Shown here: positions 1 to 47,720 of the stretch, one piece after another
Layout of the letters: the number at the start of each line of letters is the position of its first letter
Position numbering within the stretch: position 1 is the first letter of the stretch
Assembly: GCF_026210795.1 (NCBI RefSeq)
Contig: NC_089430.1
Coordinates: 3,658,001 to 3,722,000 of the forward strand
DNA length: 64,000 bases
Source of the DNA: Rhizophagus irregularis
Lineage: Eukaryota
Reading direction: 5' to 3'
Notes under the pieces: model-generated
What the model was told of the DNA's origin: nothing
The model's input: only the letters and a program-made list of their open reading frames with translations
Database searches by the model: none
Made by a program: the position numbers and the translations under genes

Positions 1-2300
1 GCTGATTGGCGTGAAGCGCTTGTTTATCCCATTCCGAAGCCTCATGAATTTGACGCCCAATTAAAGAATACGCGTCCTATTACTCTGTTAGAAACTGTGC
101 AGAAATGTGTGGTTAAATTCGTTACAACTCGACTTTCAAAAATCCTAGCTGATAACCAAGTGCTTCAAGGTGGTAATTTTGCTGGATTACCAGGCGGTTC
201 TACTGACATTCCTATTAAAATGCTTGATGCTATTATTCATCAACGCCGTTTTGACAAAACTGATGACCAAGAGTTATGGATTGTTTCTCAAGACATTTCT
301 AAGGCCTTTGACTCGATTGATTTAAATATGCTCAAATTAGCTTTAATCCGTTTACATATTCCACCTTTGTTGACCAAATTTATTATTAATCTTTTTACAA
401 GACGCAACAACAAAATTATTACACATTATGGGGATACCTCTGGATATAGAGTTAGAATTGGTATTGACCAGGGTGAAATTATTTTCCCGTTATTATGGGT
501 AATTTACTTAGATCCTTTGCTCACAACACTTAATCGAGAAGATTGTGATCCCTTTATTTTGAAATCCTCTGCATTATTGGATTATTCTTCGTTTGAATAT
601 GAATAACATAATCTTCCTGTTTCACATATTACATTTATGGATGACTCTACATTGATTGCTTCATCTAAACGAGGAATTGAAGATCGCCTTTCAATCACTG
701 CTGAATTTTATACTCTAAATAATACTCAAGCTAATTCAGCAAAATATATCCTTCTTTCTTCTGAACAAATTTCTCAAACTATAGTGTTTGATCTTTTCCC
801 ATCTCCTTTAATCCCTATTTGTTCCCTTACTTTAAAGGCGTTAACTTTATCCAAATCTTTCCATTTTTTAGGTGTTTGGTTTTGCCTTTCAGCTTCTTCT
901 CGCTTTGTTCATGATCAATGCACTTCCATGGTCAAAGACATGGCTGCCCTACTTAGCCCTAAAAAACTTTTGGCACAACATGTGGCTTATCTTTATAATA
1001 TTGTTCTACTTTCAAGGCTAGAATTTCGCCTACAAACCACGTTATTTGCTGAATCCACCATTAACCATATGGTTTTCCCAATGCTTTCTCTCATTCAACA
1101 GAAGGCTGGTTTTGCCTCAACAACTCCTCTTTCCGCACTTTTTACATTGTTGCCATTTTCAATCCAACAAGCATTTGGTCGATTTTTATCGTCTCATGTG
1201 GCTTCACGACAAAGAATTTTTTCTCATCCTTTATATAAAACCTTTGCCAATTATGTAATTACTTATCTCCAAGGCTTTCTAGATTGTGATGCCTGTCCTT
1301 CTACTATTGATTTAGAACCATGGTCCCATACCTTTTCTCTTCGCACACATTCTTTATTTAATTTTTTATTGTTCTCTTCTCGATTGAAAATCACGTGGTC
1401 TTTATTATTCTGACCTCCGAAAAAGGATCTACGTCCGGCGATTCCACTCTGGTCTATTTTACCTAAAGATTTATTTACTTCCATGAAAAATGTTCGAAAC
1501 AATTTTGGTACTCGTTTTCTTGCCCAACTGGTTACTCCATGTGGCTCCACCGCTCCAGACTTCTTTCATGGAAAGATTTACACTTTCTTAAACGAGTTTC
1601 GAACAAAGGATCTGTGCCTGCTTGGTTTACTTATTTATTTAATTTTGTTATTATTTCTAATTCTCCTTCCTTTTTTGTTTTACCGCAATTTAGAATACCT
1701 AATTCCCATACTGTAGCTTCTATCCATTTTATAGATATTAGTCGAAATTATTTGTTTAATCTCCAATGGGCTATTTCTTTTAATCGTAATACTAATTCTT
1801 TTCTCGTTGGCCGTGTGATCATTACCTATCCTGCTCCATGCAATGAAGCTCTTATTTCACATTGGATTGTGTCATCTGTTGATGACTTATTATCCGATTT
1901 TACTGCATGCCAAGGTTGTGCCTCTGCTATTCCACGATCCTCAACTTCCAAGACATTGCTTAAATGGTGTCCCTCTGAAAAGTGCTTTTCTTATGTGTCT
2001 TTATCAACTCTTATCCGTTACCCTACGAAGCCCCGTACTTATATACATGCGGAAACTCGTTCGGTCTCGCTTTCCGTCTCGTTAGGCTATGCCAAATCTC
2101 TATTATTACTATTTTATCTTTTTGCTCCAGTTCGATCATTTCTCATGAATAATTAAGTGTCTAGGATTTCGGATATCCAACTTCCCTCTTTGGTGTCTAC
2201 ACTATATATCAATGGCTCTTTCCTTTCTTTTCCCAGTCATTCGGTACCTTCGATGGCTTATGTATAGACTGCTATCGATTCTGATGGATTCATTCTTGAA

Positions 2301-4055
2301 TAGTGCTCTAAAAAAAATCCGATCTGATCTGGATCCGCAAATTTGATCCGAGTCAGATCCGGTTTGGTTTTCAAAATTCTGATCCGTAGATCAGATCAGA
2401 TTTAAAAAAAATCTGATCCGATCAATTTCAGATCAGATCAGATCATAACACAAGAAAATCTGATCCGATCTGAACAGATTCAGATCAGATTTTTTTTTAA
2501 ATAAAAAAAAAAATTTTTTTTTTAAAAACTTTTCCTGGACGAACGGACGAAGCCGGACGACCAAGATTTAAAAGAACGAACTAGGTAAGTTCGTTTCTTT
2601 TTTTTTGTTTTTTTTACTTGAGGGAACGTATTTAACGGTTCCCTTCTTTAGTAGGAAGCCTGGACGAACGAAACCTAACGACATGACCAGGATTTAAAAA
2701 AAATGAACGAACTATGGTAAGTTTGTTCCTTTTTTTTATTTTTTATTTTTTATTTTTTATTTAAGGGAACGTAATTAACGTTCCCTTTCTTTTTTTTAGG
2801 AAACCTGGACGTGAGACGAAGGAACGACCAGGATTTAAGAGAACGAACTATGGTAAATTCGTTTCTTTTATTTTTATTTTTTATTTTTTATTTAAGGAAC
2901 GTAATTAACGTTCCCTTTCTTTTTTTAGAAAACCTGGACGTGAGACAAAGGAACGACCAGGATTTAAAAAAAAGAACGAACTATGGTAAGTTCATTTCTT
3001 TTATTTTTATTTTATTTTTTTTACTTAAGGGAACGTAATTAACGTTCCCTTTCTTCTTTTTTTTTTAGGAAACCTGGACGTGAGACAAAGGAACGACCAG
3101 GATTTAAGAGAACGAACTATGGTAAGTTCATTTCTTTTATTTTTTTTTTTATTTTTTATTTAAGGGAACGTAATTAACGTTCCCTTTCTTTTTTTAGGAA
3201 ACCTGGATGTGAGACGAAGGAACGACCAGATTTAAAAAAAAGAACGAACTATGGTAAGTTCATTTCTTTTATTTTTATTTTATTTTTTTACTTAAGGGAA
3301 CGTAATTAACGTTCTCTTTCTTTTTTTTAGGAAACCTGGACGTGAGACGAAGGAACGACCAGGATTTAAGAGAACAAACTATGGTAAGTTCGTTTCTTTT
3401 ATTTTATTTTATTTTTTTACTTAAGGGAACGTAATTAACGTTCCCTTTCTTTTTTTAGGAAACCTGGACGTGAGACGAAGCTGAACGACCAGGATTCAAA
3501 AAAAAGAACGAACTATGGTAAGTTCGTTTCTTTTTTTTATTTTTTTATTTTTACTTAAGGGAACGTACTAATTAACGTTCCTTTCTTTTTTTTAGGAAAC
3601 CTGGACGTGAGACGAAACTGAACGACCAGGATTCAAAAAAAAGAACGAACTATGTTAAGTTCGTTTCTTTTTTTGTTTTTTTTTTTATTTTTACTTAAGG
3701 GAATGTAATTAACGTTCCCTTTCTTTTTTTTTTAGGAAACCTGGACGTGAGACGAAGCTGAACGACCAGGATTCAAAAAAAAAACGAACTATGGTAAGTT
3801 CGTTTCTTTTTTTTGTTTTTTTTCTTTTTACTTGAGGAACGTAATTAACGTTCCCTTCCTTTTTTTAGGATAAGGACCAGATCTGAACCAGATTCGGATC
3901 AGATTCAAATCGGATTCAAATGGATCCGAACCAGATTCGGATCAGATTGAACCAGATCTGATCGGATTCGGATCAGATCAGATCTATTAAAATAAAAATC
4001 AGATCGGATCAGATTTAAGCTGAATCCCGTCTGAACCGATCTGTTAGGAGCACTA
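2301..4055. mobile_element. Non-autonomous hAT-like DNA transposon inserted in the LINE RNase H domain
   Basis: 8-bp TSD TTCTTGAA (2293-2300 and 4056-4063). TIR TAGTGCTC/GAGCACTA. Dense subterminal GATCCG/CAGATC motifs at 2316-2490 and 3878-4042. Removing it restores the frame ..DGFILE|SYYNTIPS.. Confidence 0.9.
2530..3870 (+). repeat. Tandem array of about 10 units (~130-140 bp), each a micro-exon plus GT-AG intron with hairpins
   Basis: Unit: TTTTTTAG|GAAACCTGGACGTGAGACGAAGGAACGACCAGGATTTAAGAGAACGAACTATG|GTAAGTTCGTTTCT..AAGGGAACGTAATTAACGTTCCCTT..TAG. Confidence 0.88.
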
Positions 4056-6194
4056 TTCTTGAATCTTATTATAATACCATTCCTTCTCTTTTCCCTTCTG
4101 CATTGCGTTCTGAAATTTTTGCTTTATTGCATGGATTGGACTCTCTCCCTCAGAATTCCAAGATTACTGTCGCTACTGATTGTGCTCATTTAATTTCCCT
4201 ATGGTCTACGTATGTGGATGCTTCTTTTATTCCTAAAATGCTTAAAGAATCCAACCACCTTTTATGGTCTTCGGCACGAGCTATTATTTCATAAAAGAAC
4301 CTAGAAGTTACTTTAATCAAGGTTCCTGCTCATGCTGACGATTCTTTGAATAATCATGTTGATGATTTAGCGAAAGCTGTTCATACGGACTCGCGTCTTT
4401 CCCTTCAGTCGCCTGCACTTTTGGCTCCTTGCATTTTACAATTTAATTCTTTACCTGTGGATATGAATATCCGAAAATTCATTGGAGAAATTTTTGACGC
4501 TAAGAATCTTTTGACTTTTGCTTTATTACCAAGATTCAATCTTAATTCCTCTATTCCAGACATCAATTGGGCTTGTACTAAATTTTGTTTTAATAATAAA
4601 CAATTACAATTTTCCCATCGCAATGGCCGCTCTGAATTTTGTGCTTTCTGTATCAAGATTTTATTGGATATGCTTCTGACACTCACAACTCTTTAGAAAC
4701 GAAAGCCTCATATCTATGATCCGAGTTGGCCCTGTCCTCAGTGCAACTCCTCTCCTGAGACCTTAGACCACTTATGGACTTGTCCTTATATTCTACCTGA
4801 ATTTAGCCCTTTTAATACTTTTAAAACTCTTCTACTGGACCTTCGTACTGTTTACCTTGATAAATTTCTTTTCGCGACTCCTTTGAAACCTTTACTGGAC
4901 TCTTTTGTTGCGGAATTTACGGCTATTGATTGTTGGGAATGTGACCCTCCTTCAAATTCCTGTCTGCGATTTGCACGTGGACTTATACCGATGTCTCTTA
5001 CAAGTTTTCTTGTAACTTATTTTTCACCATCCAATATTTGGTCTATCCTCGATACACCCCTACACAACTTTCATTTTGACCTTTATGTTCAAATCTGGTT
5101 GTGCCGTTCCATTTTCTTTCACCATTGGGAATCAGCTCAAGGCATTACTAATAAGATGAAATCGTCTGCTATTGGTCCTTCTTCTATTTCTCATCCTTCC
5201 TCTCATATTGTTCCTGATTTTTTGACACCTTCCCTGGCGACAGTTTCCTTGGATTCCTGGGTTTCTTGGGTTTCCTCTTATGTAATCCGTGGGGGATCTT
5301 GGATTTCGCACTTGGATTTTTGGCGCCGCTTAACAGTTCAGCCTCTACTTAGGATTTCTTTTTGGTAACGGATTGGATCTTAGGACATGCTGGATAGTTG
5401 ACTCACACTGGCCTTCGGGTAAAGTTGAGGTATGCGTTTCTGTAATAGTTTAGTTTTTCTTTACTTAATTTTATTTTGTTTAGATTTCTTTACTTGTATG
5501 AATCGTGAAGCTAGTTCTTTTTATTTTTTATGTTTAATTTCTATATTTGTTCTTTGTAATATTGTTCGATTTGATTATTGTACTTTTCGTTTAAAATTAA
5601 ATAAAAATAAAGTCAAAAGACTGTTTGCTCATAATCACCAAATATAGACTGTCCCAAATGTGTGACTATAAAGAGAGTTGACTGTAATTCCAAACATCTA
5701 GATCCCTTCTATACCATCATATTAAATACTAAGTCTTATTTAAAAGCCACTACAACTTGTGATTATCTAGCATCAATAGTATAGTTGTAATCTCCAAGTG
5801 GTATACTTTGTAGTAACCATTTAGACATTAAGATGTACAGCTCAATACAGAATCATTCTTTAAAATGGATATTAACCATAAGGAATTACCACCTAGTATC
5901 CATCCAGTGGAAAGTCAAATCCTATTATTAAACTATCTGTTCTGTTTAGAAATATACATATAGTACATGAAAAAAATAATTATAATAATATTTTTGTTTA
6001 TTGTATAACAAATATTTATTAAACTTTCATGAAAATTTAAACATACAGTCCCCTTGATATAACGAACTCTACGTTTCAGCCGATCAGGGCTTTGTTATAA
6101 GCAACTTCATTTACACTATAACGAATTATTTGGTATAGATATATTGGTCATATAAATCATGTGACTTGTTAATCTGATTACCGATAATTTAATT

Positions 6195-6665
6195 ACTAAT
6201 ATTTTTTTATTTTTTTTATTGTAGTGAACTTCCAGACTTCAAAATGATCGCCTGAAATGAGAAGTAAGTGGGAACAATTCATTTTTTTATTAATTTCGTT
6301 TAAGAATATTTACTACTAATGTTCTTTTTTTATTTTTTTTATTGTAGTAAACTTCTCAGATTTTGAAATGGACGTCTAAAATGAGAAGTAAATGGAGACA
6401 ATTCATTTTTTTTTATTAATTTTGTTTAAGAACATTTACTAATGTTCTTTTTTTATTTTTTTTTATTGTAGTAAACTTCCTGGACTTTGAAATGGACGCC
6501 TAAAACGAAAAGTAAGTGGAAAACTTATTTTTTTTTATTAATTTCGTATAACATTATTTACTAATGTTTATTTTTTTATTTTTTTATTGCAGGGAATGCT
6601 TCCTGAAGTGTTCTACTTTTTTTTGTAGATTTTAGCTTAGGACTTGGAAATGGAGACCGATAAGT
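6195..6665 (+). repeat. Tandem array of 3-4 micro-exon/intron units (~125 bp)
   Basis: Repeated ATTGTAG|T(G/A)AACTT..GAAATGGACG(C/T)CTAAAA(T/C)GA(G/A)AA|GTAAGTGG..AAGAACATTTACTAATGTTCTT.. Confidence 0.75.
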
Positions 6666-6724
6666 ATTTTTAAAGGGTTGGAACTTGGAAGTGGATTTTT
6701 AATTTTTTTATGTAAAAATGTTTA

Positions 6725-6906
6725 GGGGAGTTACACATATCACGTAATATTCATTTTATTATAAACCTTACCCCCCCCCCCTTGTTAGATTTCATAACCA
6801 ATCAAATTATAATATTTATAAATCATATGATTTAAATAAGTGTAACGTAAAATTTTAACTACCCCCCTCCCCCCCTATAATAATTACATAATATGTGTAA
6901 GCTCCC
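6725..6906. mobile_element. PIF/Harbinger-type (Tourist-like) MITE, copy 1
   Basis: TTA TSD. TIR GGGGAGTTACACATAT / ATATGTGTAAGCTCCC. Near-identical copy at 17798-17975. Confidence 0.85.
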
Positions 6907-7358
6907 TTATTATATTTCTTTTTTTGTAGGAAATAATTTAATGTTATTTACAATAACTGACTATATAATAAATAAATAATTATTGTTTTTTAATGATATG
7001 TTAATTTAACCAGAAGTATTCTTTAGGGTCCTGTTACTACTGTGATAAATATAAATTAATAATAACTTATATCGAATCCTAATACAACTGAATTAATGTA
7101 AATTAACATAATTCTGCCTAAATATTAAATAAAATAGCCAGAATTATCAATCCTAATACGATTCTGATATGATTCTGATCTATAATTTAAATATAAAATA
7201 CGGGAATGATATTTAATGTTATATAATATTTTGTGCATCAATCTAATTATTAATAGAATTATTTAATTACATACAATCAAAAACTGCAAAATTTTTCATT
7301 ATACTGAAAAAAAAATTTGTTATAAAAAAAATCCATTATATTGAGAATAAAGATGTAG

Positions 7359-7720
7359 TATGTAATTGATAATTACTACATTGTGTTGTAATAGTAAGGG
7401 TTGCAACTGATGACTTTTATTTTAAAGTTAAAGGTAATATTACAACACTTACGATTGTTCAAAAATTTCCTTTTTGAAAAATAAAAATTACAAAAATAAG
7501 TTTTTATAGAACAAATATCATCATAAAAGAAATAATTAATATATAATAATACATATTTATATAATTGGAAATAATTACAACACTATATAATAATTACAAT
7601 ACTAGTAGTAATTATAATACTATATAATAATTATAATATTGTGTTGTAATTACAACAAAAGTGTTGTATGTATGTTGTAATAGTTGCAACCTTATAACCT
7701 TCTAAAAATAATTACATATT
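7359..7720. mobile_element. Short AT-rich MITE-like repeat with inverted (A)GGTTGCAACT motifs
   Basis: AAGGGTTGCAACT at ~7396 and AGTTGCAACCTT at ~7682. A reverse-complement copy is found in three pieces at ~50688-50826, 55165-55245 and 63026-63180. Confidence 0.65.
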
Positions 7721-8289
7721 ACATTTTTAATTGAGAAGTATTTTTATATAAGCAATTCACACACTTTACTTCGTACTATGTTATATAGTAAATAAATAGT
7801 AAACTTCGTTATATCAAGATTTTTTTTATATTTAAAATCAGTACCATACTGAAAATCTGTTATATTGTATTATTCGTTATATAGAGGTTCGCTGTAAAGA
7901 GGGGGGACTGTATATGTTTTATTATATTGCAAAAAAGTTTGAATAGGCTTAATTAATAATTTATTTTATTGCTATTATTTGCTTTAATCTTAATGGCATA
8001 CTTTTAATTAATAAATTAATAAAAATTTCACAGGCCAATTTCTTTCCACTTTTTTTCAAATTATTTTCTAGAAATATCTATGATAATTAATTTTTTTTTT
8101 ATTACTGGTTTATTAACCTGTCTTTCTACATGTTTCTTCAATATGTTTTACAATTTTCTATAGAATAGAAACCATTTTCCCAATATTATATAACATTATG
8201 CAAAAATTTCATAAACTATATTATTATAGATAAAGCATAATTGCATACTTTACAGAAACCTTGAAAATATGAGCGATGTTGAATTGATA

Positions 8290-16682: not shown

Positions 16683-17797
16683 TTTTTGATAATGGTTTCT
16701 ATGAGTTAAAAAATGTGGATCAAAAATTTTTTCAATTTTTTTTTTTTATTTAAATAATTTTAATCTTACCACATCATGATCGAGTAAAAATATGGTTAAT
16801 TTCGAAAATAAAAATTATTTTTTGCCATTGATCTATTACATCGTGTAATACAGATTTTTTTAAGGGAAAAAAAATCTGATTAATTATTTAATATAATGAT
16901 GGATATTGTGATTAAATCATGAACAAGTAATTTTTTCATATCGTGATTATATTACTTTTTTTCCTTAAAAAAATCATACGGTACAATAAGAACAATGGAA
17001 ATAAGAATTTTTTTTTTCTTTTCGAAATTAAATAGATTAGATTGAGTCAATAATTAGACTTTTCTTTTTTTCGAAATTAATCTCATCATATGATTACGGA
17101 TATTGTAATTAAATCATGATCGAGTAGAATCTTTTTTCAATTTTTCTTTTTTTTCTTTGTGATCGAATAAAATTCCATATCGTGGTTATACACCTATTAG
17201 CAAAAAAACTTTTTTGCAAAAAAAAATTGTATTGATATCGGTTTCCTAATAACACTACGGGTTCCTTGAACCCTCTCAAGCATCTAAAGTTAAACTCTCT
17301 CATAAACACAGAGAGCGCAACTTACCTTAATATGACATGAATACTAAATATGCTTAGTAGTGAGAACGAAAAATTAAATTTTGGGAAAAGGGGAAAGATA
17401 AAATGGATCAACAAACTGAAATGGATTTTAACACATGAATCCTTCAGATGAAATTACTATGTTAGTAGAAAATTCAGGAGGTGGAAATAAACAGTATAAT
17501 TATAATTTTGCTTCGCCACAATAACTTTTTATGATGGTAACAATCGTTATATAATTTTGATTATTTTCTACATGACCAAAATAAGTATATCGTCTTTTTA
17601 ACAAAATTTTTTAAGATCATCAAAATATTATTTTGATATTAGCAACTGAATGTTGGAACACATGATCGGAAATCAATAATTTAAGTATAATACTTATACG
17701 AAAAAATAGAAACTATCATGATGTTTAACTGAACAATTTATAGCATATTTTTTTTTTATTTTATATTATAGTGTATTATAAGTTTATTATATTATTA

Positions 17798-17975
17798 GGG
17801 GAGTTACACATATCACGTAATATTCATTTTATTATAAACCTTACCCCCCCCCCTGTTAGATTTCATAACCAATCAAATTATAATATTTATAAATCATATG
17901 ATTTAAATAAGTGTAACGTAAAATTTTAACTACCCCCTCCCCCCTATAATAATTACATAATATGTGTAAGCTCCC
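17798..17975. mobile_element. PIF/Harbinger-type MITE, copy 2
   Basis: TTA TSD, same TIRs and internal sequence as 6725-6906. Confidence 0.85.
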
Positions 17976-17999
17976 TTATTATCATAAAAAAAAATTGTG

Positions 18000-21929: not shown

Positions 21930-24300
21930 ATCGTGACCGCAGCACATAAAAGGAAATTGGGTTAGCATTCTCGAAAAAAACGTTCATGGTTACATTAAAT
22001 CTTGGATAGTTGATCGGAAGAATTTGTTAATGGTTACATCGATTCTTTATGACGAAAATTTTGGGAAAATTTGATGTCTTAACGGTTACATGTAAAGAAA
22101 TTATATATGAGTATCGTAACTGTAGGACATAAACGGAAATTTGGCCAACAAAATTTTCAAATTATTGGAATAATTGATCGGGAAAATCCTTAATGGGTAT
22201 ATTAGCTCTTTGTCCGCAGAACATTAATGGTAATTTCGAGCAATATTAACGGTTACAAGTAAAGAAGCTATATATGAATATCGTGATCGCAGGACATAAA
22301 CGGATTTTCGGGATAATTTGTTCAGGAGAAAAAATTTGTTAATGGTTACATAATCAGGGTTGAAGAATTATACTGTACGTACTACTATATTATGCTACCC
22401 TAATACTTAAATAGAGTACTTTTTTTCATATGTTTAATATATTATATATTTATTTTAATAATTAGGATTGATAATAAATTATTAACTATTCTTTTAATCT
22501 TAATAGAAAAAATATTATATTAAATATTTAACAGTGCAATATTAATGCAATGTTTACAGTACATTGATAAAATTTTGGGCAATGGAAAAATTGCGGTTAC
22601 ATGTAAGGTGATCGCAGGACATAAAAGGAAATTTAGATTCAGATTTGGGGATAATAAAATTATTAATGGTTACACATTGATTTTTTATCTGCAGCGCATT
22701 GATAGAATTCAGGGGTAATCTGAAAAATTTGACAGAAATATCGTGATCGCAGGACATAAACAGAAATTTAGATCAAAAAATTGATCGGAAAAATATTTGT
22801 CAACAGTTCTGTTGATTCTTTATCTACAAAAGATCTTTATCTGCAGCACATTGGTGGAATCTAGGGTAATGATCTGAAAAATTTGGAATGAATATCGTAG
22901 TCGCAATAAATAAATAGAAATTTAGGTCAATAATTGATCAGAAAAAATTATCAATGGTTACATTGATTTTTTATCTGCAGCGCATTGATAGAATTCAGGG
23001 GTAATCTGAAAAATTTGACATGAATATCGTGATCGCAGGACATAAACGGATTTTCGGGATAATTGTAAAATTTGTTAATGGTTACATAATCAGGGTTAAA
23101 GAATTATACTGTACGTACTATATTATGCTGTCCTAATACTTAAATAGAGTACATTTTTTATATGTTTAATATATTATATATTTATTTTAATAATTAGGAT
23201 TGATAATAAATTATTAACTATTCTTTTAATCTTAATAGAAAAAATATTATATTAAATATTTAACAGTGCAATATTAGTGCAATGTATACAGTAAATTGAT
23301 GAATTTTGGGCAATGGGAAATTGCGGTTACATGTAAGGTGATCGCAGGACATGAACAAAAATTTAGATCAAAAAACTGATCGGAAAAAAATTTTTGTCAA
23401 CAGTTCTGTTGATTCTTTATCTGCAAAAGATCTTTATCTGCAGCACATTGGTGGAATCTAGGGTAATGATCTGAAAAATTTGGAATGAATATCGTAGTCG
23501 CAATAAATAAATAGAAATTTAGATCAATAATTGATCAGAAAAAATTGTTAATGATTACATTGATTTTTTATCTGCAGCGCATTGATAGAATTCAGGGGTA
23601 ATCTGAAAAATTTGACATGAATATCGTGATCGCAGGACATAAACGGATTTTCGGGATAATTGATCAGGAGAAAAAATTTGTTAATGGTTACATAATCAGA
23701 GTTGAAGAATTATACTGTACGTACTATATTATGCTGTCCTAATACTTAAATAGAGTACATTTTTTATATGTTTAATATATTATATATTTATTTTAATAAT
23801 TAGGATTGATAATAAATTATTAACTATTCTTTTAATCTTAATAGAAAAAATATTATATTAAATATTTAACAGTGCAATATTAGTGCAATGTATACAGTAA
23901 ATTGATGAATTTTGGGCAATGGAAAAATTGCGGTTACATGTAAGGTGATCGCAGGACATGAACAAAAATTTAAATCAAAAAACTGATCGGAAAAAAAATT
24001 TTTGTCAACAGTTCTGTTGATTCTTTATCTGCAAAAGATCTTTATCTGCAGCACATTGGTGGAATCTAGGGTAATGATCTGAAAAATTTGGAATGAATAT
24101 CGTGGTCGCAATAAATAAATAGAAATTTAGATCAATAATTGATCGGAAAAATTGTTAATGATTACATTGATTTTTATCTGCAGCGCATTGACAGAATTTG
24201 TTACATTAATTCTCTATCTCGGAATTATGTAATGAAATTTTAAAAAAAAAAACTTTTACAAGTTGTTGACCCAAATTTCCTTTTATGTAGTGCAGTCATG
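21930..24300 (+). repeat. Complex tandem repeat (three ~0.6-0.7 kb copies) built from the motif CGTGATCGCAGGACATAAACGGAAATTT
   Basis: TTATACTGTACGTACTA blocks near 22368, 23104 and 23710. The motif is repeated more than ten times. Confidence 0.9.
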
Positions 24301-24469
24301 ATATCACAATCGTAATATTATAAAAAAAATTACTTTGTACTTTTTTCCCAAAGAATTCAATTGATATTTTTTTAAAGTTTGACTGTCCATATCTTATCAG
24401 TTACATATAAAAATACCACATCTCAGATCAGAGTTTTTAGATTTCTAATAAAAAAAAGTTAGAAAGAAA

Positions 24470-24748
24470 ATGTCCTTTCCCAAACCTAGTAGAGAAGAAA
24501 CAGGTATAAAAAAAAAAATACCTCATATATTAATTCATTAAATAACGTATGATAATATTCATATAATTTCTTTCATATATAGATAATACGATATTGATCT
24601 CACTAGACGATCTAATAAAAGAACAAACCCGATTGAACAATCTTCGCCAAACCAACATTAAAAAGAAACGGCAACGTCCGTCTCGTAACAACCGAGCGAA
24701 GACCATGGGAGACTGGGCTCGGATGGTGAAAAAAGTATGATCATTTGA
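24470..24748 (+). CDS. Small 2-exon basic hypothetical protein (<70 aa)
   Basis: ATG at 24470, intron 24504-24582 (GT..AG). The spliced frame stays open: MSFPKPSREET|DNTILISLDDLIKEQTRLNNLRQTNIKKKRQRPSRK.. Confidence 0.45.
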
Positions 24749-24863
24749 TTCTTTAATATTTTGTGATAATTTGAAATATTTAACACTTTAAAATTATTTG
24801 TTAGAATTGATATTGCCATTATATGAAGTTATATCTCATTACAATACCGCAAAATATTACTAT

Positions 24864-25044
24864 CCCAGTAAAAAGTTCTTGTACCAAATATAGGCCAATT
24901 ATGAAATGAGTCCATTCGGTATAAAATTTGGCCATATGTATTTTAATTTTATCCCATTTATGGTCCAATTTTTCGTACCAAACGGGCTCATGTATAAATT
25001 CAATACAAACCTAATATAAATTCAGTACAGGACTTTTTACTGGG
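24864..25044. mobile_element. MITE with CCCAGTAAAAAG TIRs
   Basis: CCCAGTAAAAAGTTCTTGTAC / GTACAGGACTTTTTACTGGG. 2-bp TSD (AT, or TA if the TIR is one base longer). Confidence 0.8.
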
Positions 25045-25244
25045 ATATATTCACCTCCTTTTCAATTTATTTCAATAAAAAAATAAATCTTATGTAATTT
25101 TATAATTGTATATATCCGTAAAGCTCACCACTAGTGATTTTATCATAATAATTGATCGTAATAATTTAAAATCATAAAAATCAAAATTTCATATAAACTG
25201 GAACACGAATTGCTAACAATTTTTTTCTGATCATTTGTCTTGTC

Positions 25245-26170
25245 TAAATGTGCTGCGATCACGATATTCTTAAAATGTAATATCAATTTTTCAGAAAAGC
25301 TTTGTTAACCCAATTTCCGTTATGTCCAGCAGCCTATATAAATTTCTTTACATGTAATCGTCAAAACATCAATCAAGAGCTTTGTTAACCCAAATTTCTA
25401 TAGTTACGATGTTGTTCATTATATAATTCATTAACAGTTAATGTAACTAACTATTAACGAATTTTTTTTCTGATCAATTATCCCAAAATTCGATGATCTA
25501 AATTTCCGCTTATATCTTGCGGTCACAATATTCATATAAATTCCTTTATATATAACCGTTAAAGAAGTCAACTCTTCAGATCATTGCCTCAAAATTTCGT
25601 CAATGCATTGTAAGTAAAGAACCAATGTAGCCATTAAGAAAATTTCCCGATCAATTCAAATTTCCGTTTATGTCCCGCGGTCACAATATTCATACAAAAT
25701 TTCTTTGCACGTCAATTTTAGATCATTTTACCAAAATGTACTGTGGACAAAGAACTAACGATTGTAACTATTGACATTTTTTTCTGATCGATTTTCCCAA
25801 AATTTAAGAAATTAGTAATCTAAATTTCCGTTTATGTTCTGCAGTCACGCACGATATTCATACAAAATTTCTTTGCATGTAACTGGTTGTTAACACGTCA
25901 ATTTTAGATCATTTTCCCCAAGATTTCCATTAATGTACTGTGATCTAAGAACTAATGTAACCATTAACATTTTTTTTTCTCGAAATTTCGTGAAATTCGT
26001 AATATAAATTTCCGTTTATGTCCTGCGGTCACGATTTCATACAAAATTTCTTTACATGTAACCAGATCATTGCCCAAAATTTCCGTTAATGCACCACGGA
26101 CAAGGAACTAATGTAACCGTTAAGAAATTTGTTAACCCAAAATTTCCGTTTATGTGCTGCGGTCACGATA
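25245..26170 (-). repeat. Inverted-orientation array of the same motif (AAATTTCCGTTTATGTCCTGCGGTCACG) directly upstream of the transposase
   Basis: Copies near 25250, 25315, 25500, 25660, 25822, 26008 and 26142. Confidence 0.85.
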
Positions 26171-26298
26171 CTATGATATCCAATTGAAAATATTATAAAA
26201 GCAGTTAATGAATTAAATACACAAACGCGCATGGACATTTTTTAAATTTATGATTTTATTTCATTTTATTATTCCTTATTATAATTATTGTCATAGCC

Positions 26299-29119
26299 AT
26301 GTTACGAAATAAACCTCGAAAAGCGAATATTGCTGCAATACCTTTTCGTATCCGTAATAATTTTAGAAGGTTGCCCAACAGATTTTTATTATCGGATAAT
26401 GATGACAATGAAAAAATGGTACAAAAAGATTTTGAAGATGATAATATTAGTGGCGAAGAGTATAATGAATATGGCGACGGAGATGATGATTTAGAACAAC
26501 GAAGTGATGATGATCATATAGAACAGCGAAGCGATAATGGTGATGATTTAGAACAACGAAGCAATGATGATCATTTAGAACAACGAAGCGATAATGATCA
26601 TTTAGAACAACGAAATGATAATGATGATGATTTAGAACAACGAAGCAATAATGAAGAAGGTGATACCAACATGATTTCAACATCATCAGAGAATGAAACA
26701 GAAAGCGATTATATAATGTCCTTAGAAAGTGATGAAGATTATGAAACAATGTCGTCAGATAATGAAAAAAGACATGATTCTGATATCTCAGAAGAAAAGC
26801 TATTCGTTGATGAAGCATTGGCTAAAGATAAGTTACCATCTTTTGATGGTGATTTTGCTCCATATTTTCAAAATTTAACTACTGCTGCTTTATTTTGTTG
26901 GATTTATAAACATAATATTTCAACAAATGCATATGAAGATCTTGTTGACATTATCATGAGACCAGAATTTAATAGAGATCATATTGTAAAGAATATTCGG
27001 AGATTTCGATCATGGAGGGAGCATCTTCCTCTTCCCTCAATATCAGCAAAATCTATCTCAATTTCATCAAAAAAAACACCATCAACTTTAAAGGATTCAA
27101 AGATGGCATATCAACTTTCAATAAGTGATATCATTTGGAATATTCTTAACAACCCATCACTATTAAAGGAAATGTATTTTGGTGCTGGTGTCGATTCAAA
27201 AACAAAATCCGAGTACTGGCATGGTACCTTATGGGCAGAGTCACCTCTTTTCGGTCAAGAACAATTAATGATATCAGGGGGTAATTATTTATTAAATGCA
27301 AGCTGATGGTAGAGAGGCGAAGCAATAAAGTACAAGAGACTAACACTTTTTTCATATGTATATAATAGAGATATACCAATGCGGCGATTTTGTTTACTAT
27401 TACGATAATGAGCGAAAACTTGGCAGATTGAGAGCGATATTATTAAATGAAGAGAACCAACAGTATCGGCTAAGAATCCAAAAAGTTCTAGATTATAGTG
27501 ACTTGCCTGGAAATTTTAAGGGAGAATTAAGGCAAAATCGCTCTCTTTCCGGAGAAGTTTGGTTACAAGATGAACCATTCTTGACAATAACAACATCACA
27601 AATTTCCGAAAAGGTTGCTGCAGATACACTACGAATTACCGAAATACTTTATAAACATCATACACACTGGCGCATTCGTGATGCAACGTTCTCTTATCAA
27701 CATCCTTCAGAATATATTTCCATAAGGCAGCCACCATCTCCAACAATTCCGGTTTATAAGCTGTTTTTGGACATATACTATGATGATTTTGGAACATTTA
27801 GGAATGTTTATCATTCGTTAGGAGGTGTTTATGTGCAGTTTGGAAATATGCCTGCCCGTCAAAGAAAGTTGCTCAAAAATCACTTTGTTCTCGGGTTTGT
27901 TCCTTTCGGTGGTAATTTCAATGAATTCATGTTGCCATTCATTTCTGAAATGAAAGAATTCGAACAAGGAAAATTAATGGAAGTGAATGGCCAAGATGCT
28001 TGGGTGATAGCTGGTTTAGGTGTCGTAACTGCTGATTTACCACAAGGGAATGACATGTGTGGTGTATTACGACATAATGCCAATAAAGGTTGCCGCACTT
28101 GTACAGCCTCTCGAGAATCACTTACCAACTTCTCTCAGGATGTACCAGCAACATCAAGATATCATCACATCACTGACGATCAATTTAAAGAGATATTTGA
28201 TGAACCTGCTACCACAAGGCAAAGACGACTTTGTACTGAGTTTGGACTAAGAACAAGGCCTAGCATTTTGGATAGGCTGCTAAGAGAAAGGCATCTACAG
28301 ACACCTCAAGATATATATCATGCAACTGCTGGGAAGATTTGACGACTTCTTAAATTAACGTATGATCTTAGAATTTAATTAACTTTAGCTAGATATGTAA
28401 CGAACAAAATCTTTTAATAAAGCTTTTTGATTTCCACAGGTGCGAATTATTTTCACAAAAAGGAGAGGACGAGTTTATCAAAGCCTGGAAGAACTTTGAG
28501 AAACCAAAAAAATGGTCTCGTTTGCCAAATCCAATTAGCCACAATGCCAGTTTCATGATGTCTGACTATCTTAGGCTCGCTATGATAATGCCTTTTATAC
28601 TTAATAGTTTTTTAGAATCATCAAGCTTAAAGGAAAATGAATCCAGAAGCATTCTGCGACGAATTCAAGAATCACGCATTAACATGGCGAAAAATGTAAT
28701 AATTGCTTGTTGGGTATATGTAGCAAAAACAATGAGGATAGTTTTTGAAAGCAAGTTTACATTAGATTCGTATGACGAATTACAAAAATGCCTTGAAGAA
28801 GAAATGAAAATTCTTCTAAAGGTACAATTATTCATAATTCTTATATAATTTTTTATTTTTTATTTATCAATATATAAAATATTATTTAATAATGTGGCTT
28901 TAGGTTTTCCCTGAATTTGCTAACTTACCAAACCTGCATATCAATATCCACTTGCTGGTGCATGCAAGGACTTATGGTACTCTTATAAACACTCAAGTTG
29001 GTATCAAAGAGATGGTGCATCGGATCTTTAAAGCAATGGTACCACGAACAAATTGCAAGAATGTCGAGCTAGACTTGTTAAAGCGGTATACTACTCTCTT
29101 TGCAATTCGTCATTTAGTA
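26299..29119 (+). pseudogene. CMC/EnSpm(Plavaka)-like transposase of the outer element, 5' part
   Basis: LDIYYDDFGTFRN..GGVY..GNMP..RK..N, VVTADLPQGND, GCRTC, PQDIYH, PNLH..H motifs. BAH-like GDFVYY segment. Introns ~27281-27368, 28360-28439 and 28822-28903. TGA at 28340. Cut at FAIRHLV by the nested element. Confidence 0.85.
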
Positions 29120-30149
29120 CTTTACTGAAATATTCAAATCTAAAATAATATCTTAACGATATCATTATGAGATCGTAACGATTTCATGACGATTTTCTAA
29201 AATGATAACATATTGATATAGTTACGACTCTCTTAACGATAACGTAATAATACTGTGACGATACAGTGAATGATAACAAAACGATATCATCCAGATATTT
29301 ATTGATACTGAAATAGCATCATTTTAGTATCAGCACGATATCATCGCAGCAATGATACAGTGACAATACAGTGAATGATAGCAAAACGATATTATCCTAA
29401 CACTAAGATAGCATCATTTTGGTATCAGCACAATATCATCGCAGCAATAATACAGTGACAATACGGTGAATGATAGCAAAACGATATTATCCCGACACTA
29501 AGATAGCATCATTTTGGTATCAGCACGATATCGTCGCAGTATTATTACATTATCATAACTGTATCAGCATGTTATCATTTAAAAATCGGCATAAAACCAA
29601 TATGTTCCCATATTGATGTCGTTGAGATGTATAGAAAACAACTAATGATTATTCAGAATATCAATCATGATATCTTAACGATATTTAAATGTTATCAGCT
29701 TGGTATTATGACAATAATTAAAGTATCAATTTTATTAATAATCAAAATTTACTTATTACATATCTGATCATAAATAATAATTACAACATCGTTACTAGTG
29801 AAATTACTAGAACTAACTTTATTTCCATAGTATATGTGAAATTTAAAGCATTTACAATTATTTAATAATACCATTCAGTTTTTAAGAAATACGTGTAATT
29901 AATAATAATACCTACCATACTTACCGAAAATAAGATGCAACAATTGCAGACACAAGTGCTGTTTTAACACATACTAAATCCCTGATGGACATGGAATGAT
30001 TGTTTTGATTTTACCGCCAAGTCTATGGAAGCAACATCTCCAATTGTTCCTAAAAATACTCTAGTTGAATATGATATAAAGATAACGAGTGAGTAATAAT
30101 ATAATTTACTTATAATTTTTGATATTATAAAAACTTTGTTTATTAATAA

Positions 30150-31370: not shown

Positions 31371-31863
31371 CACGTTAGAATTTTTGAAGATTTGTAGCTA
31401 CTTTCGTTATGCTGTTTAGCTCTGGCGGTTTGACTGGCCACCCTAGTTGTCGTTTCCCGCAGGTTGATTCTTCCCTTTCCAAGTATTACTCTCATTTCTT
31501 CCTTTATAGTTGTTGTCGTTAGGTTTTTTAATATTGTGAAAAAAAACAGTAGTTAATCTGAAAAATAACTTACTTCAAACTTCAAAGGTATCAAATTTCA
31601 AAGAAACTGGTAATTATTTAACTTTAAATAAATATTTAAAAATAAAAAGTTTGGCGTAGAGGGATTTTATCAGTAAAACAAAAAAACAAAAAATTTAAGG
31701 TTTTTATTGGTTAATCAGATCCAGTCACGTGAAATAGCATTGCTAAATCACGAATATGAAGATCGATCGCTAAATGCATTATTTTAAATAACACTAAATG
31801 ATACCACCATTAATTTCATCCTACTAATTACAAATAAATATAATAAAAGTCCTTATTATAAAG

Positions 31864-34800
31864 TCATATAGCAGTAAAAAAAAAATCATTTTTTATCCAG
31901 CATTCATTCGTTGCATCATAAACAAAGTGAACCTTTTGCACACGGTCAATTACTAATATTGGGAATATTCTTCTCCAACATGTATCATAGGTTGCCTGAA
32001 TACGATAAAGAGGACATTTCAATACATGGTGAACTCTCTTAATTTCTTCAAACCAATCAATAATAATAAATGCATAAAATTTATTATTGTTGGCTTTATA
32101 TTTGAAGATTCCTTTTATAATTGCATAACATTCATCATGATTTTCTTCTTGTATTGTTACAAAGTCACCAATATGAAGATGGATTTTGGAGAAGACACCA
32201 CTAGTAGTTTCTTCTATTATATAGGTTGCCAATTTATACCAACTCATTTGAGAATATATAAGTGCTGACTTAAATCCAATATCTTCAAATGAAAGGAGCA
32301 ACTCAGAATTGAAATGTGGCAAGTTCAACATAATATTTTCACGATCTTGTTGGGATACCCCCTTTTTTAAAGTAATATGTGTAATAAAGTTTACTGGAGA
32401 AGTTACTATAATAAAATTACAATGTATAAAATTAATCATTCAGTAATCAGATTTGAATTTTAAAAAAAAAATAGTATCAAAAAATTTTGCACAAATTTTT
32501 CTTGATTAGAATTACTTAGTAAATAATAAAATTACAATACAAACCATTATCTTGTTCATCATGTTCATTTGATGTTTCTTTGTTTTCAGTAATATACCAA
32601 TTGGTTAATATATGCCTAAAATTTGATGTCAGAGAAGCAAACCCATTACAACTTTGAGATAACCTATAATCTATACCACCATCTACTAGATGACGAATTG
32701 CAAAAAGTGTGGTATATCGTTTTAATAAATCTAATTCAATATTCTTGCGATTTGTCCGGGGTACCATTGCTTTAAAGACCCGGTGTACCATTTCTTTGAT
32801 ACCACATTGAGTATTTATAAGAGTACCATAAGTTTTTGCATGCATTAGTAAATGAACACTAACATGCAGATTTGGCAAGTTGACAAATTCAGAGAAAACC
32901 TAAAAATCATTTATTATTAGTAAATAATTAATTCAAATTGCTATACTAAGTAATTATTTATACCTTTGGAAGAATATTCATTTCTTCTTTAAGACTTTGC
33001 TGTAATTCTTCATAAGAATTTATTGTAAACTTGCTTTTAAAGACCATACTCATTGTTTTTGCTATATGAACCCAACAAGTTATTATTGTATTTTTTACTA
33101 AATTAATACGTGATGCACCAGTTCGTTGTTGGATGTTTTTTGCCTCATTATTCTTCAAACTAGTTATTTTTAAAAACCGATTTAATATGAAAGGCATTAT
33201 TATAGCAAGCCGAAGGTAATCAGACATCATAAAACTTTCCCGGTGGCTAATGGGATTTGGTATACGTGACCATGTCTTTGGTTTCTCAAAATCTTTTCAG
33301 GTTTTAATGAAATCATTTTCTCCTTCTTGTGAAAATAATTCACAAGTTAATTTGAGTAGACGTCCAATTTTTCCTGCAGTAACATGGTAAATATCTTGTG
33401 GTGTTTGCAAATGTCTCTCTCTTTTCAGTTCATCTAAAATATTAGGCTGTAATTTCAATCCATATTTCCTACTAAGTTGTTTTTTTTGAGAAATAACTGT
33501 TTCAGCAGATATTAAAGCAAATTCAGAATCTGTCAAGTGATGATATCGAGAAGTTAAAGCTATATTTTGAGTAAAATCAGTAAATGAATCTTTACTTATA
33601 GTACAACTTCTACACCCCTTATTAGCATTTTGTCGCAATACACCAGCCAAATCATTACCTTGGGGTAAGTCAGCTGTTACAACTCCTATGCTTGCAATTA
33701 CCCAAACATCCTGTCCTTGTATATTCATTACTTTTCCTTTTTCAAGTTCTTTTATTTCAGAAATAAAAGGTTTTATAAACTCATTAAAATCACCACCAAA
33801 TGGGACAAATCCAAGGACAAAGTGATTTTTAAGCAACTTCCTTTGATGACTTGGCATATTTCCAAATTGTATATAAACACCTCCTAATGAATGGTAGACA
33901 TTTCGGTATGTGCCAAAATCATCATAATAAAGATCCAAAAATAGTTTGCAGACTTTCATGGAAGGAGATGGTGGTGGTCTTGTTATGATATAATCAGCAG
34001 GATGTTTATATGAAAAATCTACATTACGAATGCGCCAGTAACTATTATGTCTATAAACTATTTCAGTAATATGCAATGTTTCTTCAGGAATGAGATTATG
34101 CTGGAATATCATCATCACAGTAGCTTTTTTAGAAATTTGTGATATTCCAATTATTTGAAAAGATAGGTCTTGTAACCAAACTTCACCAGTAAGAGAACGG
34201 TTCCATCTTAGTACTCCCTTAAAAGCTCCAGGCAAATCATTATAATATAGAACTTTTTGGATTCTTAGCTGATATTGCTTATCAACTTCATTCATTAATA
34301 TTGCTCTCAATCTACCAAGGTGCAATTGTTCATTATTGTCATTATCATAATAATAAATAAAATCTCCACATCTATATGTCTCTATTAGATATAAAAAAAC
34401 AATAGAATTATTTTACACAAATTATGAATAAGAATAAATAACAAATATGATTATATGATCATTACCTTGTAATATTGTTAATTGTTCTTGGCCAAAAAGG
34501 GGTGATTCTGCCCATAAAGTTCCATGCCAGTATTCAGATTTTATTTCTGAATGAATACCTGGACCAAAATACATATTATTAACTAATGATGGATTACTAA
34601 GGACATGCCAAATAATATCATTTATTGAAAGTTGATATGCTAATTTTGAGTTTTTAGAAGTTGATGGTGTTTTTTTTGATGAAATTGGGATAGATTTTGC
34701 AGATATTGAAAGAAGAGGAAGATGTTGCCTCCATGTTCGAAATCTTCGGATATTTCTTACAATATGATTCCTATTGAATTCTTGATTCATAATAATATCA

Positions 34801-35447
34801 ACAAGATCTTCATACGCATTTGTTGAGATATCATGTTTATGAATCCAACAAAATAAAGCAGCAGTAGTAAAATCTTGGAAATATGGTGCAAAATTGCCAT
34901 TAAAATTTGGTAAATTGCTTTCATCTAGCGCTCTATCAATGAATATTTTTTCCTCTGATGAGGGATTAGCAATATTTTCTCCGCTTTCTGAAGATGTTGT
35001 TGTATCACTTTGTGATGATGCATAAACATGGTTTTCACCTTCTAGAGATGTTCTTCCTGTATCGCTATTATAATCATCATATTCTTCGTTTTCTGAAGAT
35101 GCTGTATAATTATCATCATTTTCTGACGATGTTGCATAATCATCATTTCCTGCATTCCCATAATCATCATATTCTTCGTTTTCTGAAGATGCTGTATAAT
35201 TATCACTATTTTCTGATGATGTTGCATAAATATCATCATTTCCTGCATCCTCATCATCGTCATATTCTTCATTTTCTAATTGCATATCAACATTATAATT
35301 ATTTCGTTGTTCATTACTATTATCAAAATTGTCACTACCATTATCATCATTTGGTGGTACTATTGTACCTTGTGGTTGCCTTCTAAAATTATTTCGAATA
35401 CGAAAAGGTAATGTAGTAGTATCCCTTCGTGCTCTATTTCGCAACAT
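31864..35447 (-). CDS. CMC/EnSpm(Plavaka)-like transposase of the inner element; 4 exons, one nonsense codon
   Basis: Exons ~35447-34467, 34382-32964, 32899-32543 and 32411-31864. LDLYYDDFGTYRN, VVTADLPQGNDL, GCRSC, PQDIYH. TGA at 33297 where the outer copy has W. Colinear with 26299-29119 plus 44351-45102. Confidence 0.88.
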
Positions 35448-41889: not shown

Positions 41890-43570
41890 GAAGTAATGTA
41901 AGTTTCGTTTCGAAACTTACATATCTTTTTTTTAATTTTTTTTTTAATCTTTTTAATTTTAATTAAGAAACGAACTAACGTTTCTTTTCGTTATTTTTTT
42001 TATAGGACGTGTAGGAGGACGCCGGCTTGTTCACGAAACCGGACTTTAAGGTAAAAAACGGGGAAAGGGGAAGGAGGAAGGGGTTTTGGAACCTAAAATT
42101 CTTAAGAATCTTGGTTTTATTTATTTATTTTTTTTATTATTTTGGAACGGTTTACTAACCGTTCCTTTCTTTTTTTTATAGGCTCGGTGTATTTCCGACG
42201 AATAGATGAACCAAGATTCGTAAGTACGAGTACGAATCTTGGTTTATTTATTTTTTTTTTTAATATTATGGAACGGTTACTAATAACCGTTCCTTTCTTT
42301 TTTTAGGTTTCGGTGGAGCTTCCGAGTTCCGAAGAACAGAAAAACTAAGATTCGTAAGTAAGTACGAATCTTGGTTTTGTCTTTTTTAAATATTATTAAC
42401 GGTTACTAATAACCGTTTTTTTCTTTATTTTTTTAGGTTCGGGTGTCTTCCGAAGAACGGAAAAAGAGGACCAAGATTCGTAAGTACGAATCTTGGTTTT
42501 GTTTATTTTTTTTTAATATTATGAACGGTTACTAACCGTTCTTTCTTTTTTTTAGGTTCGGGTGGGCTTCTGAAGAACGGAAAACCCAAAGATTCGTAAG
42601 TACGAATCTTTAATTTTTTTTATTTATTATTACGAACGGTTTACTAACCGTTTTTGTATATTTTTTTATAGGTTCGGGTGGGCTTCCGAAGAACGAAAAC
42701 CCAAAGATTCGTAAGTACGAATCTTTACTTTGTTTTTATTTTTTATTATTACGAATGGTTTACTAACCATTCTTTCTTTTTTTTTATAGGTTTGTGGGCT
42801 TCCGAGGATCGGAAAAAGGAGAACTAAGGTTCGTTACGAACCTTGGATTTTTTTTTATTATTATGAACGGTTTCTAACTGTTCTTTTTCTTTTATTTTTA
42901 TAGGTTCGGTTGGCTTCCGAAGATCGAAGGAACCAAGATTCGTAAGTACGAGTACGAATCTTGATTTTTGTTTTTTTTTATTATTTTGGAACGGTTTACT
43001 AACCGTTCCTTTCTTTTTTTTAATAATTTCTTACGTTTGTAGGACGGTTCCTTGGAATTTTCTTCAGCTTTGGTAAGTTTCTTTTGAAAATTTATTTCTG
43101 GGAAAGGGAGGTGCAGCTGGTGTTTTTTCATAGTAATTAGATAAAATTTTTTTTTTACACCATAGCCACCATGTACGCTAGGAAAACGGAATCCTTCGTG
43201 TTGCATAACTCGCAAATGTTACGTGTAGGACGTGTAGATGTCTTGGAATTGGTAAGTTTTATTTTTTTATTATTAATTTTGATTTTTTTTTATTAATTTT
43301 TTTATTAATTTTTTTTATCTTTTAATTTGTAAAAATCGATAGTTTCACACTTCCCGGATCGAATTAGTAAGTTTTTTCACTTAAAACTTTTTTTAAAATT
43401 TTTTTTTATTATTATTTAATTTTTTTATTATCTTTTTTTGTAGTTTCGGCTTCCTTATCCCGGATCAGTAAGTTTCAAAACGGTTCGTTTTGAAACTTTT
43501 TTTTTAAGTTTAATTTTTCCGAATTTTTATTTCAGATCGGACTTGGACTTTATTTTTTTTCTTTAGGTAT
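41890..43570 (+). repeat. Tandem array of ~12 micro-exon/intron units (~115-130 bp) with hairpins over the 5' splice site and branch point
   Basis: Unit: TTTTTAG|GTTCGGGTGGGCTTCCGAAGAACGGAAAACCCAAAGATTC|GTAAGTACGAATCTTT..GAACGGTTTACTAACCGTTC..TAG. Confidence 0.88.
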
Positions 43571-44350: not shown

Positions 44351-45102
44351 TAGATGGAGGCGCAGATCAAAGATTATCACAACCTTGTAGAGGTTTCGCT
44401 ACTATGTCCTCAAATTTTAGAAATTTATTGACTAATTGGTATATTACTGAAGACAAGGTATCAAATGAACAAGAACCGGAAGGAAATGAAGAAGGTTTGT
44501 ATTACAATTTTATAATAATAATATTTCCGCAATTATTAACGTATTTTTAATTTTATATAGCCATTTCATCTCCAGTGGATTTTATTACAAATATTATCTT
44601 AAAGAGGAGCTTATCCCGTCAGGATCGCGAAAATATCATGAAAAATTTGCCAAATTTCAAATCTGAGCTGCTTCTTTCATTTATGGACATTGGACAAAAG
44701 TCAGCTCTTATATATTCTCAAATGAGCTGGTATGAATTGGCGACATACACTATGGAAGAAAGCGATGGCGTATTTTCCAAAGTACATCTTCATATTGGTG
44801 ACGTCATAACAATACACGAGAAAGACAGTGGTGAATGTTATGCGATTATAAAAGGGATCTTCAAATACAAAGGCAATGATGATAAATATTATGCCTTTAT
44901 TACTATTGATTGGTTTGACAATATTAACAGAATTCACAACGTATTGAAATGTCCTCTTTTTCGCATTCAGACAAGCCAAGACATTCGCTGGAGAAGAATC
45001 TTCCCGATATCAATAATTGACCACGTACAGAAAGTTCACTGTGTCTATGATACGAAAATTGATTTGTGGATAAAAAATAATTATTATTTTACGGCTATAT
45101 AG
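44351..45102 (+). pseudogene. 3' part of the outer transposase with C-terminal BAH-like domain
   Basis: Resumes at DGGADQRLSQPCRGF, continuing FAIRHLV (cf. FAIRHLVDGGIDYRLSQSCNGF in the inner copy). LHIGDVITIHE..YAIIKGIF..FITIDWF. Confidence 0.88.
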
Positions 45103-47129: not shown

Positions 47130-47720
47130 AATATTTTTAAATGATATCGTAACAGTACGGTTTGATAATTATATCGATACATTTTCAACATCATCATAAC
47201 ATCTTCACGAAAACATCACGATTTTTAAATGATATTGTAACAGTACAGCTTTGATAATCATAACGATACATTTTCAACATCATCATAACATCTTCACGAA
47301 AACATCACGATTTTTAAATGATATCGTAACAGTACGGTTTGATAATTATATCGATACATTTTCAACATCATCGCAACATCTTCACGATAACATCACGATT
47401 TTTAAATGATATCGTAACAGTACAGCTTTGATAATCATAACGATACATTTTCAACATCATCGTAACATCTTCACGACGACATCACGATTTTTTTGAAGAT
47501 ATCGCGACGATATAGTTATGATAGTCTTAACGATACCTTTCCAACATCTTCACAATATCAAATTACGAAATCAATATGATATTGTTCTGATATCAAAATA
47601 TTACCGATTTTAATATCGCGAAGATGTTGGAAAGGTATCGTTAAGACTATCATAACTATATCGTCGCGATATCATCAAAAAAAATCGTGATGTCATCGTG
47701 AAGATGTTGAAAATGTATCA
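47130..47720. repeat. Subterminal 89-bp tandem repeats ending in a ~90-bp-arm inverted repeat
   Basis: TTTTTAAATGATAT(C/T)GTAACAGTAC at ~47133, 47222, 47311 and 47399. 47465-47550 is the reverse complement of 47620-47710. Confidence 0.85.

Follow-up and report, generated by a model that had tools for sequence, protein, structure and literature searches.

The stretch of DNA analysed here, a 64-kb window of Rhizophagus irregularis contig NC_089430.1, raises the question of why a mobile element should carry between its ends nothing other than a tandem array of intron look-alikes, and whether these units are spliced, kept by selection or passively accumulated. The element is 1,755 bp long (positions 2301-4055) and non-coding. 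On either side it is flanked by the identical 8 bp TTCTTGAA (TSD), and it terminates in TAGTGCTC on the left and GAGCACTA on the right, giving a perfect TIR of 8 bp (TAGTGCTC) beyond which the ends can be aligned imperfectly up to about 58 bp. The motif GATC is frequent near both ends, with 16 copies in the left subterminal block (192 bp) and 12 in the right one (179 bp), and the array (1,339 bp) has 0. The left block, made up of GATC/CAGAT motifs, is, as we assume from known hAT anatomy, a likely site of transposase binding. The label hAT is likewise our assignment from terminal features typical of that superfamily, and other superfamilies can also leave an 8-bp TSD.

A frame search of the right flank matched 46 proteins, all named Rhizophagus irregularis and several of them RNase H. 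In silico removal of the element together with one TSD restored a single reading frame, the junction of which was spanned by 9 of 47 proteins. Judged from these matches, the element inserted into a decayed LINE, within its RNase H region. The identity of the flanks was derived from the right-flank protein matches instead of Pfam, which gave no matches for the LINE frames (4 among the 17 proteins scanned). The library type of sequencing run X15 is not on record, and its contigs were treated as DNA because the flanks were covered; 10 of them pass directly from the left to the right flank and represent the empty LINE site, and in 4 the left TIR is adjoined by different flanking sequence, representing copies at other loci. 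Within the 64-kb window, the ends of the element recur nowhere else. With an 8-bp TSD, a short TIR accompanied by subterminal motif repeats, an empty site and copies elsewhere, the element is, by its sequence features, a non-autonomous DNA transposon of the hAT type that carries no payload other than the array. A preliminary description of this DNA had proposed a hAT-like element that is mobilised with the array as cargo and holds only about ten units between the GATC blocks. The TSD, the TIR, the empty-site contigs and the copies at other loci bear out the former, and the ten units counted from 2530 to 3868 in a GATC-free array the latter. A functional link of the array to the LINE was considered and rejected, as nothing ties its sense orientation to the interrupted element.

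Table 1. Coordinates of the hAT-type element, its insertion site and the related arrays in the 64-kb window.
Feature	Position	Strand	Basis or remark
Decayed non-LTR retrotransposon (LINE), 5' part, received the insertion	1..2300	+	Frame restored at empty site
Left TSD, 8 bp, TTCTTGAA	2293..2300		Flank identity
Left TIR	2301..2308	+	8 bp perfect; imperfect to ~58 bp
Left subterminal block, GATC/CAGAT motifs	2309..2500		16 GATC in 192 bp
Ten exon plus intron-like units	2530..3868	+	Splice signals; predicted exon, donor and branch stems
Introns 1-5	2585-2651/2654, 2717-2799, 2853-2928, 2986-3068, 3122-3197	+	Predicted
Introns 6-10	3254-3330, 3384-3458, 3518-3595, 3655-3735, 3794-3868	+	Predicted
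Broken donor of unit 9, TT replaces GT	3655..3656	+	Reads ATG/TTAAGT (exon/intron)
Right subterminal GATC block	3869..4047		12 GATC; in translation, forms the end of 5 of 10 public gene models
Right TIR	4048..4055	-	Pairs with left TIR
Right TSD, TTCTTGAA	4056..4063		Flank identity
LINE, 3' part (RNase H / RT zinc-finger region)	4064..5400	+	46 protein matches
Element with CAGTCCC termini, TA-flanked; degenerate kin array at ~6170-6650 inside	6046..7910		Ends and array similarity
Kin array with other donor stem and homologous branch stem; element ends not found	41890..43025	+	Unit similarity

The array displays the signals of U2 introns, namely a GT donor, a branch motif, a pyrimidine tract and an AG acceptor. 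Across the ten units the introns measure 67-83 nt and the exons 53-65 nt, the acceptor AG and a TTAAC branch are present in all ten, the donor GT is present in nine, and the branch A lies 19-26 nt from the AG. The motif TTAAC differs from the usual CTAAC. A core exon of 53 nt, not divisible by three, had been described before; this size applies to only 3 of the 10 exons, and one exon of 57 nt is a multiple of 3. Joining the exons yields stop codons in all three frames. A coding function was rejected on account of these stops and of the differing frames used by the public gene models discussed below.

In the predicted folds, all three stems named earlier (exon, donor and branch) are present. 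The donor stem places ATG/GTA in the loop and pairs the intron from +4 onward, and the branch stem is closed by the branch A, both according to the prediction. For five units of the array, the predicted fold is better than that of shuffled sequences with the same dinucleotides (z -2.1 to -5.5), and the minus strand folds equally well (z -6.8). Perfect stems of at least 6 bp over the branch A were observed in 9 of 10 units as compared to 1 of 115 control stretches, the controls being regex-defined intron-like stretches of the window and not validated introns; stems of this kind over both donor and branch occurred in 4 of 10 units and in none of the controls. The inverted arms are perfect over 10 bp with a 5-bp spacer and repeat at a period of about 134 bp. 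The earlier account of the stem layout thus holds for the presence of the three stems and less so for the donor stem, which is perfect over at least 8 bp in only 4 of 10 units. In the Rfam comparison, 0 of 55 weak matches reached the gathering score.

Two further arrays in the window are related to that of the hAT-type element (array 1). Kinship was scored for two units of array 1 against nine units of the 42-kb and 6.2-kb arrays, that is in 18 comparisons, and was also set against shuffles. Twelve of the 18 scores lay above every control, and the remainder were exceeded by 1-7 of the 115 controls. By this similarity, the three arrays are relatives by descent and not independent look-alikes; an independent convergent origin was rejected because the units score above intron-like controls. 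The array at 42-43 kb had been thought to differ in sequence and to be alike only in layout, which has to be corrected, since it is sequence kin of common descent. The 6.2-kb array is more degenerate than array 1 and lacks any perfect donor stem. It resides in the 6046-7910 element, which we take to be Tc1/pogo-like by its ends, and therefore the unit is cargo common to differing types of transposons. For the 42-kb array, a search for a TIR+TSD pair found none.

Some details of these neighbours may be recorded here. The 6046-7910 element has TATAACGAA subterminal repeats and a small nested element with TAGGG ends. Ahead of the 42-kb array lies a lone unit (41890-42005) in which the donor pairs with a downstream arm in a 12-bp stem and the branch stem is found in an A-T-rich version. 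At 42220 and 42354, short duplications in the loops of the donor hairpins create doubled donor-like words that are predicted to resemble nested (stwintron-like) donors. Such loop duplications occur in 42-kb units and in unit 8 of array 1.

Outside the window, the pattern scan of metagenomes returned one contig (L001), and the scans gave 0 viral and 0 prokaryotic matches. In L001 the unit is present about 1.3 times (182 bp, 80-91% alike) and GATC blocks are missing, which suggests from its sequence that the context is another element family or a rearranged fragment. At its positions 1-510, TGCGCAG-type repeats precede the unit instead of GATC blocks. Among public proteins, 10 of 11 candidates (P0047-P0056) are translations of exon-joined units. 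They are filed at NCBI as hypothetical proteins. Nine belong to R. irregularis, and the tenth, P0054 of R. diaphanus, has the unit in another sequence context. Five of the ten gene models, drawn from several accession series of R. irregularis, close with a translation of the right subterminal block and therefore point to further copies of this element. On these grounds the array unit is, as far as the sequences tell, cargo that is at least genus-wide and is carried by elements with differing termini. The earlier proposal of a recurrent cargo type is in line with the family at other loci, the kin arrays and the gene models ending in the right block.

Of the junction peptides in the gene models, 27 fall on the predicted sites, 6 use a different acceptor and 1 is of the unspliced type; the models maintain an open frame by leaving out exons and changing acceptors. 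All ten are single-member clusters in differing frames, the predicted structure has a pLDDT of 0.34, and P0047 is filed under two annotation series. A comparison with the ESM Atlas gave a best score of 0.90 to unnamed bacterial clusters, which we treated as chance. The locus-tag prefix of the models is absent from the text of PMC10234402. P0047-P0056 are probably false gene models seeded by the repeat.

To what extent the units are transcribed and spliced was assessed with RNA reads from two poly(A) runs of one study, which are unstranded and come without a positive control for splicing. The comparison covered positions 2150-3130, equivalent to introns 1-4 of 10, and drew on about a quarter of each run. 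The two runs contributed 207 and 330 reads (537 in total) and a third run 10. These reads cover the array and are almost missing from the subterminal block and the LINE flank; the excess of array over flank in RNA is about 200-fold relative to the depth ratio of the X15 contigs, contig depth being no copy number. Uniform DNA contamination as the source of the reads was rejected, as the flanks are nearly readless. Only 8 of the 537 reads are at least 99% alike to the window copy. Therefore, the RNA stems mainly from paralogues and speaks for the family rather than for the window locus itself. Mean depth in the two runs was 28 and 51 over five exon bins and 26 and 47 over seven intron bins. Among the five joints listed for introns 1-4 in these unstranded reads, for which no positive control was available, none connects a predicted donor with a predicted acceptor. 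The listed RNA joints instead skip a whole unit mid-exon, one of them with 2-4 reads, and the same joints are present in the X15 contigs. Loose read ends run from exon through donor and from intron through acceptor, both unspliced, and at least 22 of them continue into sequence resembling the right subterminal block. The reads may derive from A-rich antisense RNA caught by oligo(dT) and would then be uninformative on splicing. Splicing of the units, as implied by the preliminary description, finds no counterpart in these data, in which the 537 unstranded reads over introns 1-4 cover exons and introns equally, include reads that retain the intron and give no listed GT-AG junction.

Constraint and decay are both visible in the arrays. 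At the 22 listed acceptors of the three arrays, AG is kept without exception. In the branch stem, counted by stem register since the MAFFT alignment was out of register, the 22 units exchange G-C for A-T or C-G for T-A at 5 of 7 registers examined. The 42-kb family has an extra G-C pair in this stem, and its outer registers are often unpaired. The stems tolerate G-U pairs and differ in sequence between families, and donor pairing takes three geometries across families, with the loop at -3..+3, with the loop at +4..+5, or with a downstream arm. These comparisons suggest that the layout is kept up between families. All compensatory changes are transitions, which could arise without selection from CpG methylation damage or deamination followed by palindrome-templated repair. 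Relative to the consensus, 8 of 112 CpG positions in array 1 are changed as compared to 13 of 560 others (p 0.014, with units that are not independent). The array 1 copy shows no sign of protection, with uncompensated breaks in its stems and the loss of one GT, and is probably a decaying passenger. Among the X15 contigs, C>T or G>A accounts for 54 of 83 changed places; therefore, the family has been methylated. Variants in unit number cut mid-exon in both the DNA contigs and the RNA, with joints that skip 129-144 nt. As to the selected cargo postulated earlier, covariation of stems between families and the retained signals speak for it, whereas the uncompensated breakage of stems and of one GT within the copy speaks against it.

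We tentatively hypothesize here, leaning neither firmly for nor against, that the array is a set of splice-masked introns kept by selection at the level of the element, whose unspliced intron marks lessen silencing. The descriptive part of our analysis is far firmer than this function. The array would have originated from a genuine intron and its exon, located where the transcript of a transposon is non-coding, would have been amplified by slippage of whole units and would then have passed from one element family to another. According to the predicted folds, stems over donor and branch may mask the U1 and U2 sites, so that transcripts are intron-marked yet mostly intron-keeping. T-rich marks recognisable by U1/U2 could make the transcripts of the element resemble host pre-mRNA and thus be silenced less, and, by the same analogy, less silencing might keep a larger number of copies accessible to a transposase provided in trans.

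The analogy is with HUSH, a vertebrate system of which we know no fungal counterpart. In human cells, T-rich introns that are retained and unspliced still protect from HUSH silencing (PMC7619638), which is the likeness on which the camouflage reading is built. RNA structure can sequester splice sites (PMC12350175), and hAT and TcMar elements of R. irregularis have many copies with low methylation (PMC8647823). Mobile ends, the shared cargo, the constraint on stems between families and the intron-retaining poly(A) RNA are all compatible with camouflage. Several observations argue against it. The family is methylated according to the C>T / G>A changes in X15, which is not expected of good camouflage; a non-autonomous DNA transposon moves without needing RNA; the unstranded reads are possibly antisense, the compensatory changes are all transitions and the CpG decay is uncompensated. 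In addition, poorly spliced introns trigger and do not prevent RNAi in Cryptococcus (PMC6643885, citing Dumesic 2013). The wider notion of a selected 'locked intron' module that passes between Rhizophagus DNA transposons of differing superfamilies and is amplified in them, and in which stems keep the U1/U2 sites recognisable and unspliced and thereby set the silencing response of the host, is in our view unlikely, with an appreciable chance nonetheless.

A close rival of the splice-masked reading, and a serious possibility even if we rather doubt it, is a passive minisatellite derived from an intron. After capture of an intron and exon, the palindromes would perfect themselves by template switching and promote slippage of whole units, and no benefit would result. 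The mid-exon variants in unit number, found in DNA and RNA alike, fit such a process, as do the loop duplications in the 42-kb units and unit 8, the uncompensated CpG decay and the fact that no splicing was seen, and MITEs that carry tandem repeats along with them are a well-known phenomenon (PMC6947457). What slippage and template switching leave unexplained is why stems sit on donor and branch in each family, a combination that was found in none of the controls, why the donor stem takes three geometries, and why AG and branch persist in the 22 listed units while the exons diverge.

Two other explanations have to be weighed against masked introns. We regard it as improbable that the array is a spliced non-coding RNA cassette, whose short stop-ridden RNAs decay or feed the production of small RNAs, so that spliced reads would be rare. 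The canonical signals, the intron-like length, the 10 public gene models that join exons, mostly at predicted sites, and the presence of P0047 in two annotation series would agree with a cassette, and stalled spliceosomes are known to trigger siRNA in Cryptococcus (PMC6643885). However, GT-AG was missing among the five listed joints although a whole-unit joint with as few as 2 to 4 reads was listed, exons were not enriched, and the gene models are predictions that hop between acceptors for the sake of frame. Very improbable, in our judgement, is a role at the DNA level, with palindromes acting as sites for a dimeric protein or as cruciforms that aid transposition and with intron likeness left over from the origin. 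The perfect, regularly spaced arms and the equally good folding of the minus strand would suit this, and the element needs no RNA. It is difficult to reconcile with an array that lacks the GATC motif of the termini and is common to elements with other termini, and with stems that tolerate G-U and change their sequence between families.

With respect to known systems, tandem repeats in MITEs, interiors conserved across families and structured multi-copy fungal introns are already described. Ds-like non-autonomous hAT elements and MITEs with internal tandem repeats, such as Xstir on a Xenopus MITE (PMC6947457), share the short TIR, the 8-bp TSD, the subterminal motifs and a non-coding, tandem interior. 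In contrast to these, the unit here mimics an intron in full, bears stems at its donor and branch and is common to other element types; at 1,755 bp, the element also exceeds the range of 50 bp to 1 kb used to define MITEs in R. irregularis (PMC11075540). The CMITEs of Acropora corals (PMC2872659) resemble it in an interior that varies less from family to family than the termini do, which hints at a contribution to successful transposition, but they are piggyBac-related and not described as intron-like, whereas the interior here is a tandem intron-exon unit. Fungal introner-like elements (PMC3609843) and the sister stwintrons of Hypoxylaceae (PMC8469720) are likewise multi-copy, related introns of the spliceosomal type with stable predicted structure. 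Those enter host genes one at a time and are removed by splicing, whereas the present units are arranged in tandem with an exon inside a DNA transposon, carry stems on the splice signals and were not seen to be spliced. The array is not an introner because the TSD flanks it as a whole. HUSH (PMC7619638) and the stalled-spliceosome RNAi of Cryptococcus (PMC6643885) have in common that intron features of a transposon transcript decide on silencing; for Rhizophagus, both are analogies of mechanism only, and they predict opposite effects.

In the literature searched, we found no description of arrays of intron hairpins for Glomeromycotina; in repeat libraries, the element family may already figure among the unclassified repeats. 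A count of the word 'intron' in the main text of two studies of R. irregularis transposons (PMC11075540 and PMC8647823) gave 0. Unclassified repeats make up about a quarter of the genome of R. irregularis (PMC8647823). One class of this fraction now gains an anatomy, and it is a class that seeds false gene models, 10 of which were found. If the array is selected, it would amount to an experiment of nature, in many copies and in a fungus whose small-RNA system is expanded, on whether a transposon is protected by intron marks or exposed by them to RNAi.

The window contains further repeats that were noted in passing. A miniature element of about 185 bp with the ends TAGGGGAGTTACAC and GTGTAAGCTCCCTTA is present in two copies (6723-6909 and 17796-17978), the 17.8-kb copy having TTAT on both sides. 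Large direct and inverted arrays of GGTTACAT and GATCGCAGGACAT motifs surround a small gene at 21950-26200. Inverted paralogous gene pieces of 73-79% identity (26254-29119 with 32684-34958, and 31855-32422 with 44545-45111) are presumably Plavaka-like; at the cut-off, they had no Pfam match. Foldback (self-inverted) repeats were detected at 61211-61748 (540 bp at 88.5%) and also at 52262-52567, 47464-47708 and 29150-29628. A broken Helitron occupies 56440-60695 on the minus strand, with a DUF6570 match (E 5e-35) and weak matches to Helitron_like_N and Pif1.
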